From a virus, in the IMG/VR virus record IMGVR_UViG_3300025697_000013, positions 1-64,000 of that record: a stretch of 64,000 bases of DNA. One strand, written 5' to 3'. Each line of letters starts with the position of its first letter. The first letter of the stretch is position 1. Shown piece after piece: positions 1,841-42,560 of the stretch. Under the pieces are notes generated by a model that saw only the letters and a list, made by a program, of their open reading frames with translations, ran no database searches and was not told the DNA's origin. Both the position numbers and the translations under genes were made by a program.

Positions 1841-1887
1841 GGTTCCTCCTCGTTGTGCCCATGGGGGCGGTCATTCATCCTGGGGTC

Positions 1888-9045: not shown

Positions 9046-9231
9046 TTAGCCCGCCATCTCAACGCGCTGGCTCCACTCCTGAACGATCGCTAAGCCGCCA
9101 TCTCTGCCGACGCTCACGCGGGACTCTGACAGCATCTCTTTGCCGACCAGCTTGCCGCCGCGGTTATGGGCGATCCAGAGGCGGTTGCTCAGCTCGGTCT
9201 GCGAATGCGCTCTCACTGTGATTGTTCTCAT
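9046..9231 (-). CDS. hypothetical protein
   Basis: GGAGG RBS, first gene after promoter 9283-9310. Confidence 0.55.
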   Translation of the reverse strand: MRTITVRAHSQTELSNRLWIAHNRGGKLVGKEMLSESRVSVGRDGGLAIVQEWSQRVEMAG

Positions 9232-9282
9232 GGCGTCCTCCGGGTTGGTCTTGCTGGTTGTTGTTCCCTTCTTCATGTCCAC

Positions 9283-9310
9283 ATCATAGCAAACCCTGCG
9301 TCCTTGTCAA
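9283..9310 (-). promoter_or_regulatory. near-consensus sigma70-like promoter (TTGACA-16-TATGAT with TGn extension)
   Basis: Near-consensus -35 and extended -10. Confidence 0.7.
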
Positions 9311-9319
9311 CACTTTTTT

Positions 9320-9334
9320 TCGACGATACGTCGA
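9320..9334. promoter_or_regulatory. operator TCGACG-ATA-CGTCGA
   Basis: Perfect copy, T-tract flanks, next to -35. Confidence 0.75.
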
Positions 9335-9443
9335 TTTATTTTTTCACCACCAGCGCTTGCATTTCCTCGCCGGATCGTCTACAGGTAGACCACGGACGGA
9401 CGGCCAAGGTGGTCGTCGCAACGTCGAACGAAGGAGGTAGAGG

Positions 9444-15195: not shown

Positions 15196-15220
15196 CAATA
15201 CCTCCGGTCAACCTGGGACC

Positions 15221-15273
15221 GTTTTACGATAGGAGGAGGAGGCTGTCAAGAAAAAAGATCGACGGGTCGTCGA
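15221..15273 (-). promoter_or_regulatory. promoter TTGACA-17-TAAAAC plus operator TCGACG-GGT-CGTCGA (15259-15273)
   Basis: 15250-15277 is a perfect 28-bp inverted copy of 1919-1946. Confidence 0.75.
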
Positions 15274-16741: not shown

Positions 16742-17068
16742 TCAATCGTCCTCGTGGTTCACCAACGTCTTGCGACCAGCTTCCCGCTCGAGGACCGTGT
16801 CAACCTCACCCTGGACCGTAGCCAAGGCGATCTGCCCCAACCACTGCGGGATCACGATCTCGCTCCCCTCCAACTGATCCAGGACCATCTCCACAACTGA
16901 CCGGCGCCGCTTCGCTAGGACATCCCCATCCACGAATGCGCCGGGCTCACCGTTCTGGTACGCGCCTGCCTCGTAGAACGCTCGATCAAGCTGCGCCCCG
17001 AACTCGGTGACCCACGCTTGGGCCCGGTCCCTGGCAACGTCTTTGACCGTGCGGGTCGGGGTGGTCAT
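16742..17068 (-). CDS. hypothetical protein
   Basis: ATGA overlap with MTase. Confidence 0.55.
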   Translation of the reverse strand: MTTPTRTVKDVARDRAQAWVTEFGAQLDRAFYEAGAYQNGEPGAFVDGDVLAKRRRSVVEMVLDQLEGSEIVIPQWLGQIALATVQGEVDTVLEREAGRKTLVNHEDD

Positions 17069-17751
17069 GGCGCGCACACCTCCCGCAATCGTCCCTCAGC
17101 CATCTGCACCGCACCCTCCTTCGCATCCACCCCGTGGAAGCGCCGGCCCTGCCGCACCACGGCCTCCCCGAACGCACCCGACCCCATGAACGGGTCCAGG
17201 ACCAGCTCGCCCTCCTGCGTGCTCTGGCGCACCAGGAGCTCGCCGAACCCGACGGGCTTCTCCGTGGGGTAGCCACCGCGCACCCGCTTCCATGCCTGGA
17301 CGTTGGGCTCCCCCAGGTCCGCGATCCGCCGCTTTCCCTTCTCGAGGAACATCACCATCTCGTACCTGGATCGGTAGTGGTAGCCCATCCCCATCACCAT
17401 CTTGTCCCAGATGATCGGGGTCCAGACGGTGAAGCCCGCCGCCTCGGCCGCCGTGGCCACGCACCGCCAGCCAGTCTCCCAGTCGCAGAAGACGTAGCAG
17501 TGTCGGTCCCGCTTCAAAATGCGGTAGAGGTGCAGGATAACCTCGGCGAGCTGCTCGTTCGAAATCACGTCGAACCACTCGCCGTTCTTGAGCCGGGTCG
17601 TGGTACCCTTCGCTCGGTGCTTCTCCATGCTCTCGTAGGGGGGATCGGTCAAGATCAAATCGTAGTGATCATCGGGAGCCCACTGCAACCACTCGAAGAC
17701 GTCCTGACAGAAGAGCCGGAAGCCTGGGCCGATGCAAGTGGGCGTAATCAT
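17065..17751 (-). CDS. N6-adenine/N4-cytosine DNA methyltransferase (beta class)
   Basis: TDPPY; PTEKP; VLDPFMGSG. Confidence 0.9.
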   Translation of the reverse strand: MITPTCIGPGFRLFCQDVFEWLQWAPDDHYDLILTDPPYESMEKHRAKGTTTRLKNGEWFDVISNEQLAEVILHLYRILKRDRHCYVFCDWETGWRCVATAAEAAGFTVWTPIIWDKMVMGMGYHYRSRYEMVMFLEKGKRRIADLGEPNVQAWKRVRGGYPTEKPVGFGELLVRQSTQEGELVLDPFMGSGAFGEAVVRQGRRFHGVDAKEGAVQMAEGRLREVCAP

Positions 17752-17754
17752 TGG

Positions 17755-18198
17755 CTAGAAGGGAAAGCTCTCGTCATCTTTGCTTCCACCGCCATCGCCG
17801 GAGTTGCCAGCCGGGGCCTCGCCATCGCCACCGCCGTCCTGGGATCCACCGCCCTGTCCGCGGCCGCCCTGCTTGTCGAGGAAGACGACGATGAAGGCGT
17901 TGACCTCGCTTGTGTAACGGTCATTGTCATCGCGGTCCTTCCACTTCCGGGTCTGCATCTTCCCCTCGACATAGACCAGGCTGCCCTTCTGGAGATACTG
18001 GTTGCAGCGCTCAGCGAGCTTGCCCCATACCACGATGTTGTGCCACTCGGTCTTGCTTTGCCACTCGTCGCCCTGCTTGTATCGCTCGTTAGTGGCGACC
18101 GAGAAGTTGCACACCGCCGCTCCGGAGGGGATGTTGCGGAGGTCTGGGTCCTTGCCAAGGTTCCCAACAATGGTAGCCTTATTGACGCTTCCTGCCAT
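17755..18198 (-). CDS. ssb: single-stranded DNA-binding protein
   Basis: SVNKA.IVGNLGKDP, TEWHNIVVWGKLAE, KGSLVYVEG, acidic tail DDESFPF. Confidence 0.95.
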   Translation of the reverse strand: MAGSVNKATIVGNLGKDPDLRNIPSGAAVCNFSVATNERYKQGDEWQSKTEWHNIVVWGKLAERCNQYLQKGSLVYVEGKMQTRKWKDRDDNDRYTSEVNAFIVVFLDKQGGRGQGGGSQDGGGDGEAPAGNSGDGGGSKDDESFPF

Positions 18199-18272
18199 GG
18201 TTCGCTCCTGCTGTAGTGGGATGAATTGGTGAAGGTACCGCCCCCGTCAACCATCCGTTCAACCTGTGGACC

Positions 18273-18301
18273 GTTCTACGATACGTCGATACGCGTGTCA
18301 A
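18273..18301 (-). promoter_or_regulatory. ssb promoter TTGACA-17-TAGAAC with operator variant TCTACG-ATA-CGTCGA (18275-18289) overlapping spacer and -10
   Basis: Consensus -35; followed by GGTCCAC-AGGTTGA. Confidence 0.7.
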
Positions 18302-18407
18302 GGAAAAGATCCACTGGCTATAGAATCCAGACACACCGCTGCGCTGGTTTTGAAGCCTGCACAGCAGCGAGGTTGAACGAAGATGACCGAGGAGGTCACT
18401 CCGAGAC
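18302..18407 (-). ncRNA. candidate antisense small RNA (~105 nt)
   Basis: Own promoter TTGACA(18437-18442)-17-TACCTT; hairpins TGACC-TCCTC-GGTCA and CGCTGC...GCAGCG; complementary to several phage leaders. Confidence 0.5.
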
Positions 18408-18438
18408 AGACTGAAGGTAGCCGAGGTCTGCTGGGTTG

Positions 18439-19167
18439 TCAAGAGCGATCGTTGTGCTTGGCTAGGATCCCCCGCACAGTCTCGGGGTGCCAGCGGGCGC
18501 CGGTCTTGGTGGGGACTGCATCTCGGTTGAATCGGTTGGCGATCGAGGCCAGAGGGAACCCTTCCTTCCGCAGCCGGTGCATCCGGTTGATCACCGCCTG
18601 CTCCTGCGCGTTCTCGACCAGGCCGATCGCCCCGTCGCGAGCGGGTACCGCGTCGAACCCGTAGGGCACCGTCCCCCCGGTCTTCTCCCCCTTGGCCCGC
18701 TTCTCCCCCAGGGCAGCGGTCGTGCGCTCCCGTCCGAGGTTCCGCTCCATCTCAGCGACCCCGGCCAGGACCGTGAACATGAACTGCCCCATCGCCGAGC
18801 TGGTGTCCATCGCCGACCCGCCCTGATCCACCAGGTGGAGGGCGACCCCGTCGCTTTCCCACATATCGACCACGTGGAGGGCGTCGCCAGCGTTGCGGAA
18901 AAGCCGGTCGAGCTTCAGGGCCACGACATTCAGGACCCCCCCCCTGACACCGACGACTTGCTGCACCTTGGCACCCCCGTGCCGGTCCCCCAGGGGCTTG
19001 CCAGCGCTCACGCCCTCGTCCCGGATCAGGTACGTCAATTCGAACCCCCGCATCTCGCAGTAGGATCGGATCGCCCGCTCCTGCGCCTCGATGCCCAGCC
19101 CCGACTCCGCCTGCTCCTGTGTGCTGACTCGAATGTAACCGACCGCCTGCTTGCTTGCCTCAGCCAT
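18439..19167 (-). CDS. serine recombinase (resolvase domain + short Recombinase DNA-binding domain)
   Basis: YIRVSTQEQ, DEGVSA, KLDRLFR, AEMER...ERT, PYGF, IA..FN...PTKTG.RW. Confidence 0.9.
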   Translation of the reverse strand: MAEASKQAVGYIRVSTQEQAESGLGIEAQERAIRSYCEMRGFELTYLIRDEGVSAGKPLGDRHGGAKVQQVVGVRGGVLNVVALKLDRLFRNAGDALHVVDMWESDGVALHLVDQGGSAMDTSSAMGQFMFTVLAGVAEMERNLGRERTTAALGEKRAKGEKTGGTVPYGFDAVPARDGAIGLVENAQEQAVINRMHRLRKEGFPLASIANRFNRDAVPTKTGARWHPETVRGILAKHNDRS

Positions 19168-19405
19168 TGGTGTCCTCCAAAAATACCACTTCGGCTCCAA
19201 CGGCCTGGCCATAGACCATGCAGTCGTCGTGAGACCAGAGATACGTATCATGTTCGTCGTGGGAGTGGATACGCACAACCCCTTCCGGGAGATATGCGGG
19301 AGAGTGCCCGCCACCGGGCAGGCAAAAAGAAACTCCGGCGTTCGCAAACCGCACCGTACGCTTCCCTGCGCCGTCCTCGTGAATCTGTGGTAGCTGTCGC
19401 TTCAT
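19160..19405 (-). CDS. hypothetical protein
   Basis: Coupled ORF upstream of recombinase. Confidence 0.45.
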   Translation of the reverse strand: MKRQLPQIHEDGAGKRTVRFANAGVSFCLPGGGHSPAYLPEGVVRIHSHDEHDTYLWSHDDCMVYGQAVGAEVVFLEDTNG

Positions 19406-19408
19406 CGT

Positions 19409-19645
19409 TCAGCCCCTCTTCCTGTCCGCAGCCTTCTGGCACCTCTGGCAGCGCGACCCAGCGGAGTCGCACTCGGCGAGCCAGTCCACGCCCCCGCGCG
19501 GCTCTGCTCCGCACACCGGCATGTCGGTATCGTCGCTGATCAGGTGGACCGAGCTGTAGCGAATCCGCCCGGTGTCATCCTCTTTGAGCCAACCAGCCCA
19601 CTCCTCGGTGGGGGTGTAGTCGAGATCATCGTCGTAGCCTGCCAT
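19409..19645 (-). CDS. hypothetical protein, possible Zn-binding
   Basis: VH...CG...CQRC. Confidence 0.55.
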   Translation of the reverse strand: MAGYDDDLDYTPTEEWAGWLKEDDTGRIRYSSVHLISDDTDMPVCGAEPRGGVDWLAECDSAGSRCQRCQKAADRKRG

Positions 19646-19648
19646 CGA

Positions 19649-19882
19649 TCAGCCCTTCTCCCCGTACTCGCCCTCGCCCATGAGCATGTCCCGGGGGTCC
19701 TTGAGCTGCTCCCGCAGGTGGTGCAGGTCTCCGACGTCGCCCCAGTCGCAGTCCTGCTTGTTGGCGGGGTGCTGGGTGGTGGTCGCGTCCAGGATCTCAG
19801 CGAGCATCTTCAGGATCGCTGCCCGGTGCTCGTTGTAAGCCTGCTTCGCCGTCCGCTTCGTGGTCTTCGTGGTTCCCGTCAT
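19649..19882 (-). CDS. hypothetical protein
   Basis: GGAGG RBS; WGDVGDL motif. Confidence 0.6.
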   Translation of the reverse strand: MTGTTKTTKRTAKQAYNEHRAAILKMLAEILDATTTQHPANKQDCDWGDVGDLHHLREQLKDPRDMLMGEGEYGEKG

Positions 19883-19923
19883 GGTGTCCTCCCCGTGGTT
19901 TTCATCCTCGTCAACCTGGGACC

Positions 19924-19974
19924 ACTTTACCGCGTGGACGCAGGGAGTCAACCTTTTGTTCGACGATGCGTCGA
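19924..19974 (-). promoter_or_regulatory. promoter TTGACT-16-TAAAGT plus operator TCGACG-ATG-CGTCGA (19960-19974)
   Basis: Followed by GGTCCC-AGGTTGA. Confidence 0.7.
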
Positions 19975-19975
19975 T

Positions 19976-20548
19976 TTATTTTAGGGCGGCGAATGCGCCC
20001 GCTGCGGGGTGGGCCAGGTCTGCGAGTTGACCAGCGACATTCTGGACACCAGGTCCCCTGGGAACCCATAGGCCCTGCGACCCCACCCACGGGATCGGAT
20101 CGGGAAGTGCGATCACGTCCTCCAGGTGCCAACTCCAGAGCCCCCGGATCGGTACTCGGGTGTCCCCCGTCAATCCACGGAAGTTGAAGTCCGTGGGGAG
20201 GGGAGCCTCCAGGCAAGGCGAATCCATGCCGTGGTGATTTCGGATCCGCACCGAGGTGGCCCTCCGGATCTCCGCGTGGGTGTCCATGAACGGAGCGCAC
20301 CGGGCCAGGCGTGCAACAGCCAGGACGAACCCCAGGGGTGGGTGCTCGTCGAGGTCCGCGCCTGCGATGATGAGGTTCCCAGTGACCGCCACCTCCTCCG
20401 GCCCCCACTTCTTCCCGGCGTGGATCAGCAGCCACCCCCGGAAGTGGGACCGCTTGGTTCGGGTCTCGATGGGCTTTTGTTCGGTGGCGATCAGCGTCGC
20501 CCATGGCTGGATCTGTGTCAGTCCGCGAATCGGTAGCATCTCGTTCAC
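19976..20548 (-). CDS. ASCH domain protein
   Basis: QPWATLI...KPIETR....FRGWLLIHAGK...G.QGLW. Confidence 0.85.
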   Translation of the reverse strand: MNEMLPIRGLTQIQPWATLIATEQKPIETRTKRSHFRGWLLIHAGKKWGPEEVAVTGNLIIAGADLDEHPPLGFVLAVARLARCAPFMDTHAEIRRATSVRIRNHHGMDSPCLEAPLPTDFNFRGLTGDTRVPIRGLWSWHLEDVIALPDPIPWVGSQGLWVPRGPGVQNVAGQLADLAHPAAGAFAALK

Positions 20549-25649: not shown

Positions 25650-26007
25650 GGTCCTTCTGCGACTTCGCGTTCGCTACGGTATCGGTCGGGAACGCAGGCC
25701 CAAGCTTCTCCCGCCATGGGATCATGCGCTCAAGGGGGAAATGCTCCAGTGCTTCCTCGTTCCCGGTGATCAAGATGTGCATGAGCCACCACGCGTCTTC
25801 GACGTACTCCCGCACCGCTTCTCCATGCACCTCGACGAGGACATCCTTGTAGACCTCCAAGGCGATGTTCTCTGCACGCATGGTGTCTTCGGGGTTCTCC
25901 TGCAGCGCCGCGCCGAGCACGACATTCCAGGTGACCCACATCGGCAGCTCCCCGGCTGTCTCCAGGTGGGTACGCCCGATCGCTAGGAGCCTCTCGCGTA
26001 CCATCAT
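25633..26007 (-). CDS. hypothetical protein
   Basis: ATGA overlap with HTH gene. Confidence 0.55.
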   Translation of the reverse strand: MMVRERLLAIGRTHLETAGELPMWVTWNVVLGAALQENPEDTMRAENIALEVYKDVLVEVHGEAVREYVEDAWWLMHILITGNEEALEHFPLERMIPWREKLGPAFPTDTVANAKSQKDHGTEI

Positions 26008-26285
26008 CGCCGTCTCCCCATCGCCTTCGCCACGGCAGCGGGCCTCTCTCCCTTCGCCGTCTCCAGGAGGATGTCCAACCCAACGCGCTGAAGGTTCCGC
26101 ACCGACAGCTTCTCCTTAGACTGGATCAGCAGGCGCACGAGCGTCTCCACCTCCCCTGGGACTTCGTGGATCCCCCTGCACCATCTGCTCACCGTATTGA
26201 TGTTCCGTCCGATGAACCTTGCGAACTCCGTCATGGATACACCGAGGTCCTGCCGCAGCGCAGCTTTGAATTCCTGACCCGTCAT
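26004..26285 (-). CDS. XRE/Cro-like HTH transcriptional regulator
   Basis: FKAALRQDLGVSMTEFARFIGRNINTVSRW..G...VP. Confidence 0.85.
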   Translation of the reverse strand: MTGQEFKAALRQDLGVSMTEFARFIGRNINTVSRWCRGIHEVPGEVETLVRLLIQSKEKLSVRNLQRVGLDILLETAKGERPAAVAKAMGRRR

Positions 26286-26350
26286 CGTCTACCTCTCGTG
26301 TGCGGGGTAATTGGTCATGCCGCCTCGGTGATCTCAGTCAACCTGTGGGC

Positions 26351-26402
26351 ACTCTACGCTACGGCGAAAGATGAAGTCAAGGATTAATCGACGGTTCGTT
26401 GA
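26351..26402 (-). promoter_or_regulatory. promoter TTGACT-18-TAGAGT plus operator variant TCGACG-GTT-CGTTGA (26388-26402)
   Basis: Followed by GCCCAC-AGGTTGA; upstream of HTH gene. Confidence 0.65.
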
Positions 26403-39461: not shown

Positions 39462-40676
39462 CTATCCCTCCGTCCCTTGGTGCCGCTCATAGTCGTAGTT
39501 GGGCGAGTCGGGATAGCACTTGCCGCAAAGCCGCACGCCGACCTTGCCCGCCGTCCATCTGGCCTGCTTCTCCGTGACCTCCTCGGTGCATCCGCACGCA
39601 CACTCGCACCGGAGGACGCTGGCCTTCGGGGCGGCCGTGGCAGTGTCACCCGCTGCGTGGGGGGGCGCGGGGCGGCCGTCACCAGCGTCCGGGAAGTCCT
39701 GCTCCCTGGGTGGCGTGGCATCGATGACCCGCCCGGGGGGACCGTCGTCGTCCGGCGCGCTAACGAGGTCCGCATCCTCGTTGGGAGGCGCTTCCGCCTC
39801 GTCGGGAAAAGCCACCGAGTCGACCCCCTGGCGTACCGCTGGGTCCGACGCCCCATGCAGTGCGGGGCGAGCGGGCTGCTCTCCTGTTGCGCGTCCGCCG
39901 TCGTAGAGGAGGTCCGTCATCCCTAGCGCCTTCGCCGCGATCATCCGGTTGATCTCCGGGTCGTCCGGCGGGGAGAAGACCATCTTCATCACCAGGAACG
40001 GCTTCTTCAACTCGGCGGCTCCGTACGAAGTCTTCACCCCGAGGAGGGCACGGATCAGCCGCAGCATCGCCTTCGTCTCAGCCATGGATTCGATGTGCTC
40101 CCGCGTCGCCCACACCCGCTCCCAGGCGTCGACCTTCTTGGATTGGCGTTTGTCCTGCTTCGCGTAGTAGTCCTCCGTCTTCTGCGCGGCCCTATGCATG
40201 TTCCGCACCAGCGGCGACTCGTCTCGCAGGTCTATCTCCTTCGTCCCCATCATCTCTATGGGGGTACCGTCGAACGTCGTCATCTGTCCGACCACTCGGT
40301 ACCGGCAGTAGTGTGGATTCAGCCAATCATCCAGGCGCCCGCTCTTCTCCGGGATGAATGTCACACCGGAGGCCGCCGACAGCTTCAGGAGCATGGGCTT
40401 CGACAGGCCCAGCTCGCCGCCCCCTGGGATCTTGTAAACCCAATTGTCCCGGGGGTCGGTGGACGGCACCGAGACAGCGGTCACCGCGGGGGTGAACATC
40501 GCTGGACACCGTTGCAGCATCGCCGGGGTCACGAGGACGTTGTGTCCCCCCTCCATCCCCTGCTTCACGAGGCTCATGGCCTCGACCACCTCCGCAGGCA
40601 CCACTGCCGTCCGGGTCTGACCAGCGGGCACCATCTCGCGCCCGGGATCCTGGGTTGTCTTCTTGTCGTCGGCCAT
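39462..40676 (-). CDS. putative recombination / ssDNA-annealing protein with C-terminal Zn finger
   Basis: Between nuclease and SbcCD; AETKA..R.IR helix, acidic linker, C.C.C...CGKC. Confidence 0.45.
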   Translation of the reverse strand: MADDKKTTQDPGREMVPAGQTRTAVVPAEVVEAMSLVKQGMEGGHNVLVTPAMLQRCPAMFTPAVTAVSVPSTDPRDNWVYKIPGGGELGLSKPMLLKLSAASGVTFIPEKSGRLDDWLNPHYCRYRVVGQMTTFDGTPIEMMGTKEIDLRDESPLVRNMHRAAQKTEDYYAKQDKRQSKKVDAWERVWATREHIESMAETKAMLRLIRALLGVKTSYGAAELKKPFLVMKMVFSPPDDPEINRMIAAKALGMTDLLYDGGRATGEQPARPALHGASDPAVRQGVDSVAFPDEAEAPPNEDADLVSAPDDDGPPGRVIDATPPREQDFPDAGDGRPAPPHAAGDTATAAPKASVLRCECACGCTEEVTEKQARWTAGKVGVRLCGKCYPDSPNYDYERHQGTEG

Positions 40677-42495: not shown

Positions 42496-42560
42496 ACTGT
42501 AGATTCGCCACCGAGGAAGAGTCAAGACAATTCGTCGAGCGCTCGTCGATTGATCGTCGA
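42496..42560 (-). promoter_or_regulatory. promoter TTGACT-18-TACAGT with two overlapping operator variants (42535-42549, 42546-42560)
   Basis: Heads the replication operon; GTCAAGACAATTCG identical to 1912-1925. Confidence 0.6.

Follow-up and report, generated by a model that had tools for sequence, protein, structure and literature searches.

Introduction

Antisense RNAs that control the whole transcription programme of a phage are, to our knowledge, described in very few systems, namely the P1/P7 C4 and P4 CI RNAs, all of which belong to temperate enterobacterial elements. P4 CI RNA is the immunity factor of a satellite phage, and its seqB sequence pairs with seqA and seqC in nascent leader transcripts. 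Here we describe a credible candidate for an antisense-RNA regulator, located at positions 18302-18442 on the minus strand of a 64,000-nucleotide stretch of viral DNA (positions 1 to 64,000 of IMG/VR record IMGVR_UViG_3300025697_000013; hereafter the window). The candidate lies between a small serine recombinase gene and ssb, and it contains a single inverted copy (the anti-box) of a short box, AGGTTGA(A/C), which stands at the predicted transcription starts of several operons of the same phage. Among these are the ssb operon (leader A), the operon of a helix-turn-helix (HTH) regulator (leader B) and an operon ending in recombinase (leader C). The window covers the first 64 kb of a viral contig of 86.9 kb in IMG/VR, and the phage genome that contains it is referred to as G000; its relative with a complete genome is referred to as G001.

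Like P4 CI RNA, the putative RNA is small and structured, it is situated in the leader region of an operon, and an exposed stretch of it is complementary to short repeats near transcript 5' ends. One complementary site lies downstream on the same read-through RNA (matching at 10/10 positions here), and the sites are off the ribosome-binding site (RBS). The two differ in that they share no homology, in that the box here is common to dispersed promoters at +1, and in that the element has a promoter-like signal of its own. The C4 antisense RNA of P1 and P7 (Rfam C4 family) blocks translation of icd/ant at the RBS. It also has single-stranded regions that pair with complementary sites downstream in the same transcript, whereas the sites at our locus lie 20-45 nt upstream of the Shine-Dalgarno (SD) sequence in leaders A, B and C, and the locus has no Rfam match at E<=1. 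In Bacillus subtilis, the small RNA (sRNA) RoxS pairs with the extreme 5' end of the yflS mRNA and alters its stability. The pairing proposed here would likewise be at the very 5' end and off the RBS, and in the RoxS case the outcome is set by RNases; RoxS is a host sRNA with a single target of that type, whereas our candidate is phage-encoded.

At the DNA level, the gal operators OE and OI form a looped pair around a promoter, 113 bp apart. Here too, two copies of a site bracket a promoter, that of ssb, with a centre-to-centre distance of 114 bp (18256-18379) in G000 and 104 bp (83817-83930) in G001, a difference of an integral turn. In contrast to gal, the sites are non-palindromic and inverted, and the flanking conserved RNA-like structure has no gal counterpart. 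The start-associated sequence (SAS) and extended SAS (ESAS) of Cluster K mycobacteriophages are short asymmetric motifs found in one orientation at many non-structural gene starts (PMC3203893). In several of those genomes one lone copy is found on the complementary strand, SAS is placed 3-7 bp before start codons and includes the SD sequence, and whether its ligand is RNA or protein was left open (PMC3203893). The box resembles SAS/ESAS and the Cluster A stoperators in being a repeated asymmetric motif in one orientation with a lone reverse copy (PMC3203893). It differs from SAS in its unrelated sequence, in its number (~5-6 copies) and in lying 6-7 nt past the -10, where transcription is predicted to begin.

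A structured non-coding element upstream of ssb

Our preferred explanation, held tentatively and with somewhat less than even confidence, is that the spacer 18302-18442 is a conserved non-coding minus-strand RNA module, the linker of which would pair with box-tagged leaders, that of ssb first, either in cis or in trans. Function of the element as an RNA is probable. The broader proposal of an earlier sequence-only reading, in which one trans-acting RNA regulates about five operons, is doubtful in our estimate. All motifs quoted in that reading are present at the positions it gave, including TTGACA-17-TACCTT (18442 to 18414), and its five proposed target strings read as it gave them. The parts of the element are as follows.

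18437-18442, minus strand: -35 sequence TTGACA of the candidate promoter P_F; shares bases with the recombinase stop codon TGA (18439-18441); identical in G001
18414-18419, minus strand: -10 sequence TACCTT of P_F, after a 17-nt spacer; TACGGT in G001, with T1, A2 and T6 kept and positions 4-5 different
18378-18403, minus strand: hairpin 1; 10 bp with one bulge, anti-SD-like loop UCCUC, arms TGACC/GGUCA
18370-18379, minus strand: anti-box CGUUCAACCU, reverse complement of the +1 box; 18370-18377 forms the single-stranded linker between the hairpins; invariant in G001 and in a micro-variant
18334-18369, minus strand: stem-loop 2; 11+2 bp, GC-rich, with several G-U pairs
18304-18325, minus strand: weak hairpin 3 (4-bp stem) and a T4 run (18304-18307); abuts the -35 of the ssb promoter; possible 3' end

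The 106-nt RNA 18302-18407(-) folds with -37.8 kcal/mol (z = -3.1). Its exposed 8-nt linker, UUCAACCU, is invariant in the three sequences compared and predicted to be unpaired in both phages, G000 and G001; the plus-strand complement, AGGTTGAACGAAGATGACCGAGGAGGT, is located at 18370-18396. No terminator was found between the recombinase stop codon and the element, and the element is thus expected to be co-transcribed with the recombinase gene.

The second stem had been described as a CGCTGC/GCAGCG hexamer; a GC-rich stem is indeed present, in the longer conserved register of 11+2 bp. Similarly, the T4 run proposed as the end of the RNA does exist, and it is not a canonical terminator in G000, nor is hairpin 3 conserved, as a 10-nt deletion removes it in G001. 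The statement that the segment holds no credible open reading frame (ORF) is literally wrong, since two ORFs, one of 87 aa on the minus strand and one of 93 aa on the plus strand, span the spacer. However, indels of +1 and -10 nt in G001 shift every frame in it, and therefore the constraint is on nucleotides and the spacer is non-coding. Both ORFs, and a frame reading through the recombinase stop codon, were rejected as coding candidates in view of these shifts. The Rfam comparison suggested along with the proposal (cmscan with 4227 models, positions 17000-20000) gave no match at E<=1, including the C4 and P4 CI-type families.

As a separate observation, positions 39574-39587 of the plus strand contain a 14-nt exact copy of hairpin-1 sequence (GTGACCTCCTCGGT; blastn-short E=0.036). 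In a scan of the genome, a minus-strand transcript of this site gave the strongest predicted duplex with the candidate RNA apart from self-matches. The copy is probably due to chance.

Conservation in a related phage

G001 is a complete 86.6-kb genome with terminal repeats, which is syntenic with G000 and has 73% nucleotide identity to it genome-wide. The 41-nt block that comprises hairpin 1 and the anti-box differs in G001 by one substitution and one loop insertion only. About 40 of 45 positions match, a level attained by only ~5% of aligned 45-nt windows across the genome, and the neighbouring ssb promoter is ~77% identical between the two phages (hand count on the alignment). In P_F, the -35 is identical, the -10 is altered as listed above with its three critical positions unchanged, and the spacer and discriminator vary.

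The changes observed in hairpin 1 are compatible with its structure: in G001 an A-U pair becomes G-U and the insertion falls in the loop, and a single-nucleotide polymorphism (SNP) in the micro-variant turns G-U into A-U. Stem 2 has nine divergent positions in G001, of which four are in the loop or bulge, one change is a compensatory G-C to C-G, two are U-G to C-G and one breaks a pair. Both hairpins together thus show one compensatory pair, four one-sided compatible changes and one broken pair. By our own reading of the pair list, the several G-U pairs would turn into C-A mismatches if the plus strand were folded, and therefore the structure belongs to a minus-strand RNA. Since indels shift every frame and the G-U pairs fit the minus strand alone, we regard the segment, whose structure and promoter-like pattern are kept in G001, as a constrained RNA element and not as a decaying cassette.

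In G001, we also noted that the 3' arm of stem 2, GGGCAG (83862-83900; L276:1557-1576), can pair either with CUGCCC upstream or with CUGCCC downstream, the latter preceding a T5 run. This alternative pairing looks like an attenuator, and it is absent from G000.

The box and its promoter cassettes

The targets quoted in the sequence-only reading are one repeated object, that is, sigma70-like promoter cassettes with the box AGGTTGA(A/C) 6-7 nt past the -10. The cassettes and boxes concerned are given below.

18273-18301, minus strand: ssb-operon promoter P_A, TTGACA-17-TAGAAC; the spacer holds a one-mismatch TCGACG-N3-CGTCGA-like dyad
18256-18265, minus strand: +1 box of the ssb leader (A), AGGTTGAACG; 10-bp inverted repeat with the anti-box; AGGTTGAGCG in G001
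26320-26344, minus strand: +1 box with extended match in the leader of the HTH-regulator operon (B); promoter B 26380 to 26351
19902-19917, minus strand: +1 box with extended match in the leader of the operon ending in recombinase (C); promoter C 19951 to 19924
15200-15214, minus strand: +1 box of promoter D; promoter 15249 to 15221, 19-nt leader with GGAGG
1845-1881, minus strand: variant box AGGATGAA located 3' of promoter E; duplex p=0.29

Four cassettes share the consensus TTGAC-N16-18-TAnAnt-GGTCC(C/AC)-AGGTTGA(C/AC). The pattern TTGAC-N16-19-TAnAn-N4-8-CAGGWTGA occurs four times, always on the minus strand, and in none of the shuffled sequences; the exact matches are D (15249 to 15208), A/ssb (18301 to 18259), C (19951 to 19911) and B/HTH (26380 to 26338). 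The bare 8-mer AGGTTGAM is found 7 times against 2.7 expected, a number reached in 2/100 shuffles. Variants of the box follow promoter E (~1881) and occur at ~42495 and, on the plus strand and outside the window, at 84748. In all cassettes, the four exact ones as well as the variants, the box is co-oriented with the promoter and lies at the fixed distance of 6-7 nt after the -10. AGGTTGA(A/C) is hence predicted to be the first bases transcribed from this class of cassette.

The anti-box at 18370-18379 is the sole copy of the box on the opposite strand. With the ssb box it makes a perfect 10-bp inverted repeat (18256-18265 and 18370-18379), the arms of which are 104 nt apart. A plus-strand promoter that would serve this inverted copy was looked for and none was found. 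P_F itself carries neither the box nor the TCGACG-N3-CGTCGA dyad.

This dyad, together with an A/T run, is found just 5' of the -35 in most early-type cassettes. Copies are present at 1923-1937, 9320-9334, 15259-15273 and 19960-19974, and weaker ones at 18275-18289, 26388-26402 and 42535-42560. The copy at 15259-15273 also scores as an intrinsic terminator, and the dyad could be an operator, a terminator or both. Readings of the box as part of a sigma54-type or extracytoplasmic function (ECF)-type promoter were dropped by eye, because cassettes differ by 1 nt in their spacing and have no -12 GC. A second conserved leader family, GTGG(A/G)CATGAAGA.GG.AAC..., follows other promoters (9230-9283; G001 ~85437, 72640 and 68360). 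It follows that two or more classes of promoter exist in this lineage, distinguished by their +1 signatures.

Predicted pairing between the linker and the leaders

Pairing was assessed by plain duplex energies of the 5' 45 nt of the RNA with each leader, set against those with 4000 random 50-nt genome windows, p being the fraction of random windows as good as or better than the leader. Predicted pairing was above this background for leaders C (p=0.0013), A (p=0.010) and B (p=0.032) of G000, and also for the leader at +84748 (p=0.018); for D and E it was not. In G001, the ssb leader (p=0.018) and two plus-strand leaders (p=0.003 and 0.046) gave similar results. As the leaders are paralogous, the tests on single leaders are not independent of each other.

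An extended match beyond the box had also been proposed. It holds for B (p=0.002) and is marginal for C and +84748 (both p=0.04); for leaders A, D and E we observed no similarity beyond the box. The expectation that the leaders would rank top in a whole-genome scan was not borne out, with C alone falling within the top 40 of 34,742 windows. In A, B and C, the pairing sites are distant from the SD sequence (20-45 nt upstream of it), which makes silencing by RBS masking unlikely.

The ssb leader shows a further relation to the element. In G001, its box (AGGTTGAGCG) has an A to G change that can still pair with the unchanged linker through G-U, and the inverted repeat is 9/10. In the minimum free energy (MFE) folds of the read-through leader from P_F to ssb, the 5' half of the element pairs with the initial 30-36 nt of the ssb leader, in G000 as in G001; the z score of the whole-leader fold of G001 is only -1.25.

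Based on these observations, we propose that P_F would drive a minus-strand RNA consisting of a 5' hairpin, the exposed 8-nt linker and a GC-rich 3' hairpin. The linker would base-pair with AGGUUGA(A/C) at the predicted extreme 5' end of early-type cassette transcripts. The best-supported partner would be the leader of the adjoining ssb/methylase operon, and it is plausible that leaders B (HTH regulator) and C (recombinase operon) would pair with it as well. In a trans route, an RNA of ~75-105 nt would be made from P_F or be cut off the 3' end of the recombinase operon; in a cis route, a long helix in the read-through transcript would loop out the ssb promoter region. The effect would likely be on the fate of the transcript, through cleavage of the duplex, protection of the 5' end or premature termination as with P4 CI RNA, and regulation may be up or down. 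In its most far-reaching form, one RNA would read the 5' tag AGGUUGA and thereby co-regulate the stability or elongation of the ssb/methylase, HTH and recombinase operon transcripts while escaping DNA-level operators; we think it unlikely that the model holds to this extent.

Several observations weigh against the proposed pairing RNA. Leaders D and E of G000 (both p=0.29) and the HTH leader of G001 (p=0.12) pair with it no better than random windows. Complementarity to the leaders follows automatically from one inverted copy of a repeated box, and therefore it does not discriminate by itself between a function at the RNA level and one at the DNA level. Variation in the box ignores pairing rules, as seen from AGGATGAA in E and its orthologue and from A, C or G at position 8. 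The difference in distance between the box and its inverted copy is a single 10-nt deletion, or one helical turn, which fits the phasing of DNA sites. As for transcription, the -10 of P_F is weak in both phages, and 4/6 bases of its -35 are also fixed by the Ser and stop codons of the recombinase. No canonical intrinsic terminator is present on the minus strand of G000 in 18200-18450, and in G001 a terminator-like hairpin with T5, non-homologous to G000, stands between the element and P_A. Covariation in relatives, which had been named as a check, yielded the one compensatory pair in G001; with effectively two independent lineages (n=2), this is thin evidence.

Alternative explanations

The best surviving alternative, which we consider possible though on the doubtful side, is control at the DNA level. 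The box would be an operator or a promoter-class element overlapping +1, bound by a phage DNA-binding protein, for which the HTH regulator (26004-26285) and the DNA-binding C-terminal domain of the recombinase are candidates. The inverted copy would serve as an auxiliary operator, looping with the +1 box and so clamping the ssb promoter in the manner of gal OE/OI, and the hairpins would do no more than terminate the recombinase operon. In favour of this, the box keeps one position and one orientation in all cassettes, its degeneracy resembles that of a protein-binding site, and the HTH gene's own promoter bears the box, which fits autoregulation. In addition, the sole indel between the two boxes amounts to one helical turn, the repeated TCGACG-N3-CGTCGA dyad shows, if read as an operator, that the phage uses dispersed DNA operators, and a micro-variant contig (L173) without the recombinase catalytic domain yet keeps a 90-codon C-terminal DNA-binding ORF beside the element. 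However, an operator accounts for ~10-14 conserved bases and not for the 41-nt block. In G001, the spacer of the hairpin-1 dyad has grown from 5 to 6 and one arm base is changed, which would harm a protein site and is neutral for an RNA. The inverted copy is also without the CCC/CAC bases found before the box at promoters, and the covariation and strand-specific G-U pairs indicate RNA. We favour the RNA level because of the length of the conserved block, its tolerance of a loop insertion, the strand-specific G-U pairs and the promoter-like conservation; the two levels of function are not mutually exclusive.

It is also conceivable, though unlikely, that the element acts purely in cis, as a leader or 3'-UTR (untranslated region) element in the read-through from recombinase or P_F to ssb, where it would be an RNase III-type processing site or an attenuator. 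Trans targets would be absent, and shared cassette ancestry would account for the matches to other leaders. This is consistent with the expected continuity of the transcript past the recombinase stop codon, with the MFE folds that join the 5' half of the element to the start of the ssb leader in both phages, with the lack of a canonical terminator ahead of P_A in G000, and with the weakness of the extended matches other than B. On the other hand, a purely cis-acting element has no need of a conserved P_F, the long helix misses the ssb ribosome-binding site, the z score of the G001 leader is low, and the terminator-like hairpin with T5 separates the element from P_A in that phage.

That the segment is a neutral relic, i.e. 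an inverted, decaying duplicate of a leader or cassette without function, is very improbable. Its plus-strand copy does resemble leader B beyond the box and has no plus-strand promoter upstream; however, the segment is ~95% conserved against a genome average of 73%, and its structure and promoter-like pattern are retained in G001. The sequence-only reading had itself named such a decaying copy lacking covariation as the finding that would count against it, and what we see instead is a structured element kept in a relative of 73% identity.

Finally, an invertible switch, in which the serine recombinase would flip the 124-bp segment between the inverted boxes and turn the ssb promoter towards the recombinase gene, has next to no probability in our view: a perfect 10-bp inverted repeat does surround a promoter next to a resolvase-family gene, and after inversion the promoter would still precede a box-type leader, but the repeat is 9/10 in G001, its arms are without an internal dyad for a recombinase dimer and only 104 bp apart, the region is intact in L173 without the catalytic domain, the plus strand holds no credible gene, its frame being broken in G001, and no strand-changing joints were found in contigs of 4 DNA runs, though contigs can miss minor forms.

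Relatives of the element

A micro-variant of the locus is represented by the metagenome contig L173, the contig L285 and runs X9/X10. It has 2 differences in the 244-nt spacer, ~1.2% in the ssb operon and 35/258 in the recombinase 3' end. Its divergence rises from 0.8% to 13.6% exactly at the P_F -35 and recombinase stop (18442/18443), and therefore P_F moves together with the element and the ssb operon as a single mosaic module. In contigs of four DNA runs, the spacer has only two SNPs, a rate no lower than that of the neighbouring ssb operon, so that micro-diversity gives no conservation signal.

L173 was the one micro-variant contig obtained in a metagenome scan with SSB. In it, the recombinase catalytic domain is gone and the 90-codon C-terminal ORF remains beside the element. 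Comparison of this ORF (18439-18710 against L173:1073-1345) gave 35 nt but only ~13 aa differences, which suggests that selection still acts on it, perhaps as a DNA-binding protein in its own right. Positions 200-272 of L173 form a 73-nt promoter cassette identical to 9270-9342 of the window, and at this joint an unrelated gene of 256 aa stands in place of two small genes and the recombinase catalytic domain. The identical cassette at the joint, taken with the jump in divergence, makes the promoter cassettes appear as mosaic recombination joints of this phage group. L285 (CAYOTU010000105.1) is a 10-kb micro-variant contig in a metagenome-assembled genome (MAG) labelled 'uncultured Myxococcales', and was the sole match of a scan of GTDB genomes; it is a weak hint at a Myxococcales host.

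Other searches did not extend this set; they showed nothing like this genome among cultured phages and next to nothing in IMG/VR. Phages in INPHARED showed only similarities in ssb-coding or methylase-gene sequence and no relative of the element. In IMG/VR, the recombinase or SSB protein as a single query returned no close relative, the promoter-plus-box pattern had no match, a 14-mer of the box gave chance single matches only, and the 17-mer seed and a hairpin-1 pattern gave only G001 and chance matches. A recombinase alignment search of IMG/VR returned G001 and three loci without the element, and a covariance model (R1) run over ~90 loci matched only G000 and G001. Judged from these sequence searches, the element is single-copy and lineage-specific.

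Genome setting

The window has a GC content of 63%, and its sequence is present in sequencing runs labelled salt-lake and marine metagenome, among which no RNA run was listed. Every gene between 14 and 28 kb is on the minus strand, and the element sits in a spacer of ~240 nt from the recombinase stop TGA (18439-18441) to the ssb ATG (18198). The flanking genes are as follows.

18439-19167, minus strand: small serine recombinase; 242 aa if M61 of the ORF is taken as the start; contains a Resolvase domain and the first half of a 'Recombinase' domain
17755-18198, minus strand: ssb; 147 aa, first gene of its operon, followed by an N6/N4 DNA methylase and a DUF5131 protein

The homologue P0002 is 71% identical to the phage SSB. 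The HTH regulator, an HTH_31/XRE protein, is encoded at 26004-26285, and most genes of the box-tagged operons are without an assigned function in PHROGs and Pfam. A gene at ~29.1-30.5 kb has ~72% nucleotide identity to a gene of Pseudomonas phages, which one record annotates as a DNA cytosine methyltransferase. No tyrosine integrase was found in the phage, the resolvase-type 242-aa protein being the sole integrase-like candidate. Given this and the terminal repeats of G001, lysogenic immunity is not assumed as the role of the element, and temporal control in a lytic cycle is as likely. The phage is probably virulent.

Implications for phage regulation

What would be new here is the nature of the target, a 5'-end tag common to a class of promoters, and its setting in an uncultured phage lineage from saline waters with a high-GC genome of 87 kb. 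Should the DNA-operator explanation be right, the locus would be an ordinary looped-operator arrangement beside an unusually conserved 3'-UTR structure. If the proposed pairing RNA is real, it would mean that phages are able to build a regulon on RNA, via promoter-proximal tags, and it would give a testable role to the lone reverse-oriented copies of start-associated repeats in other phage groups.

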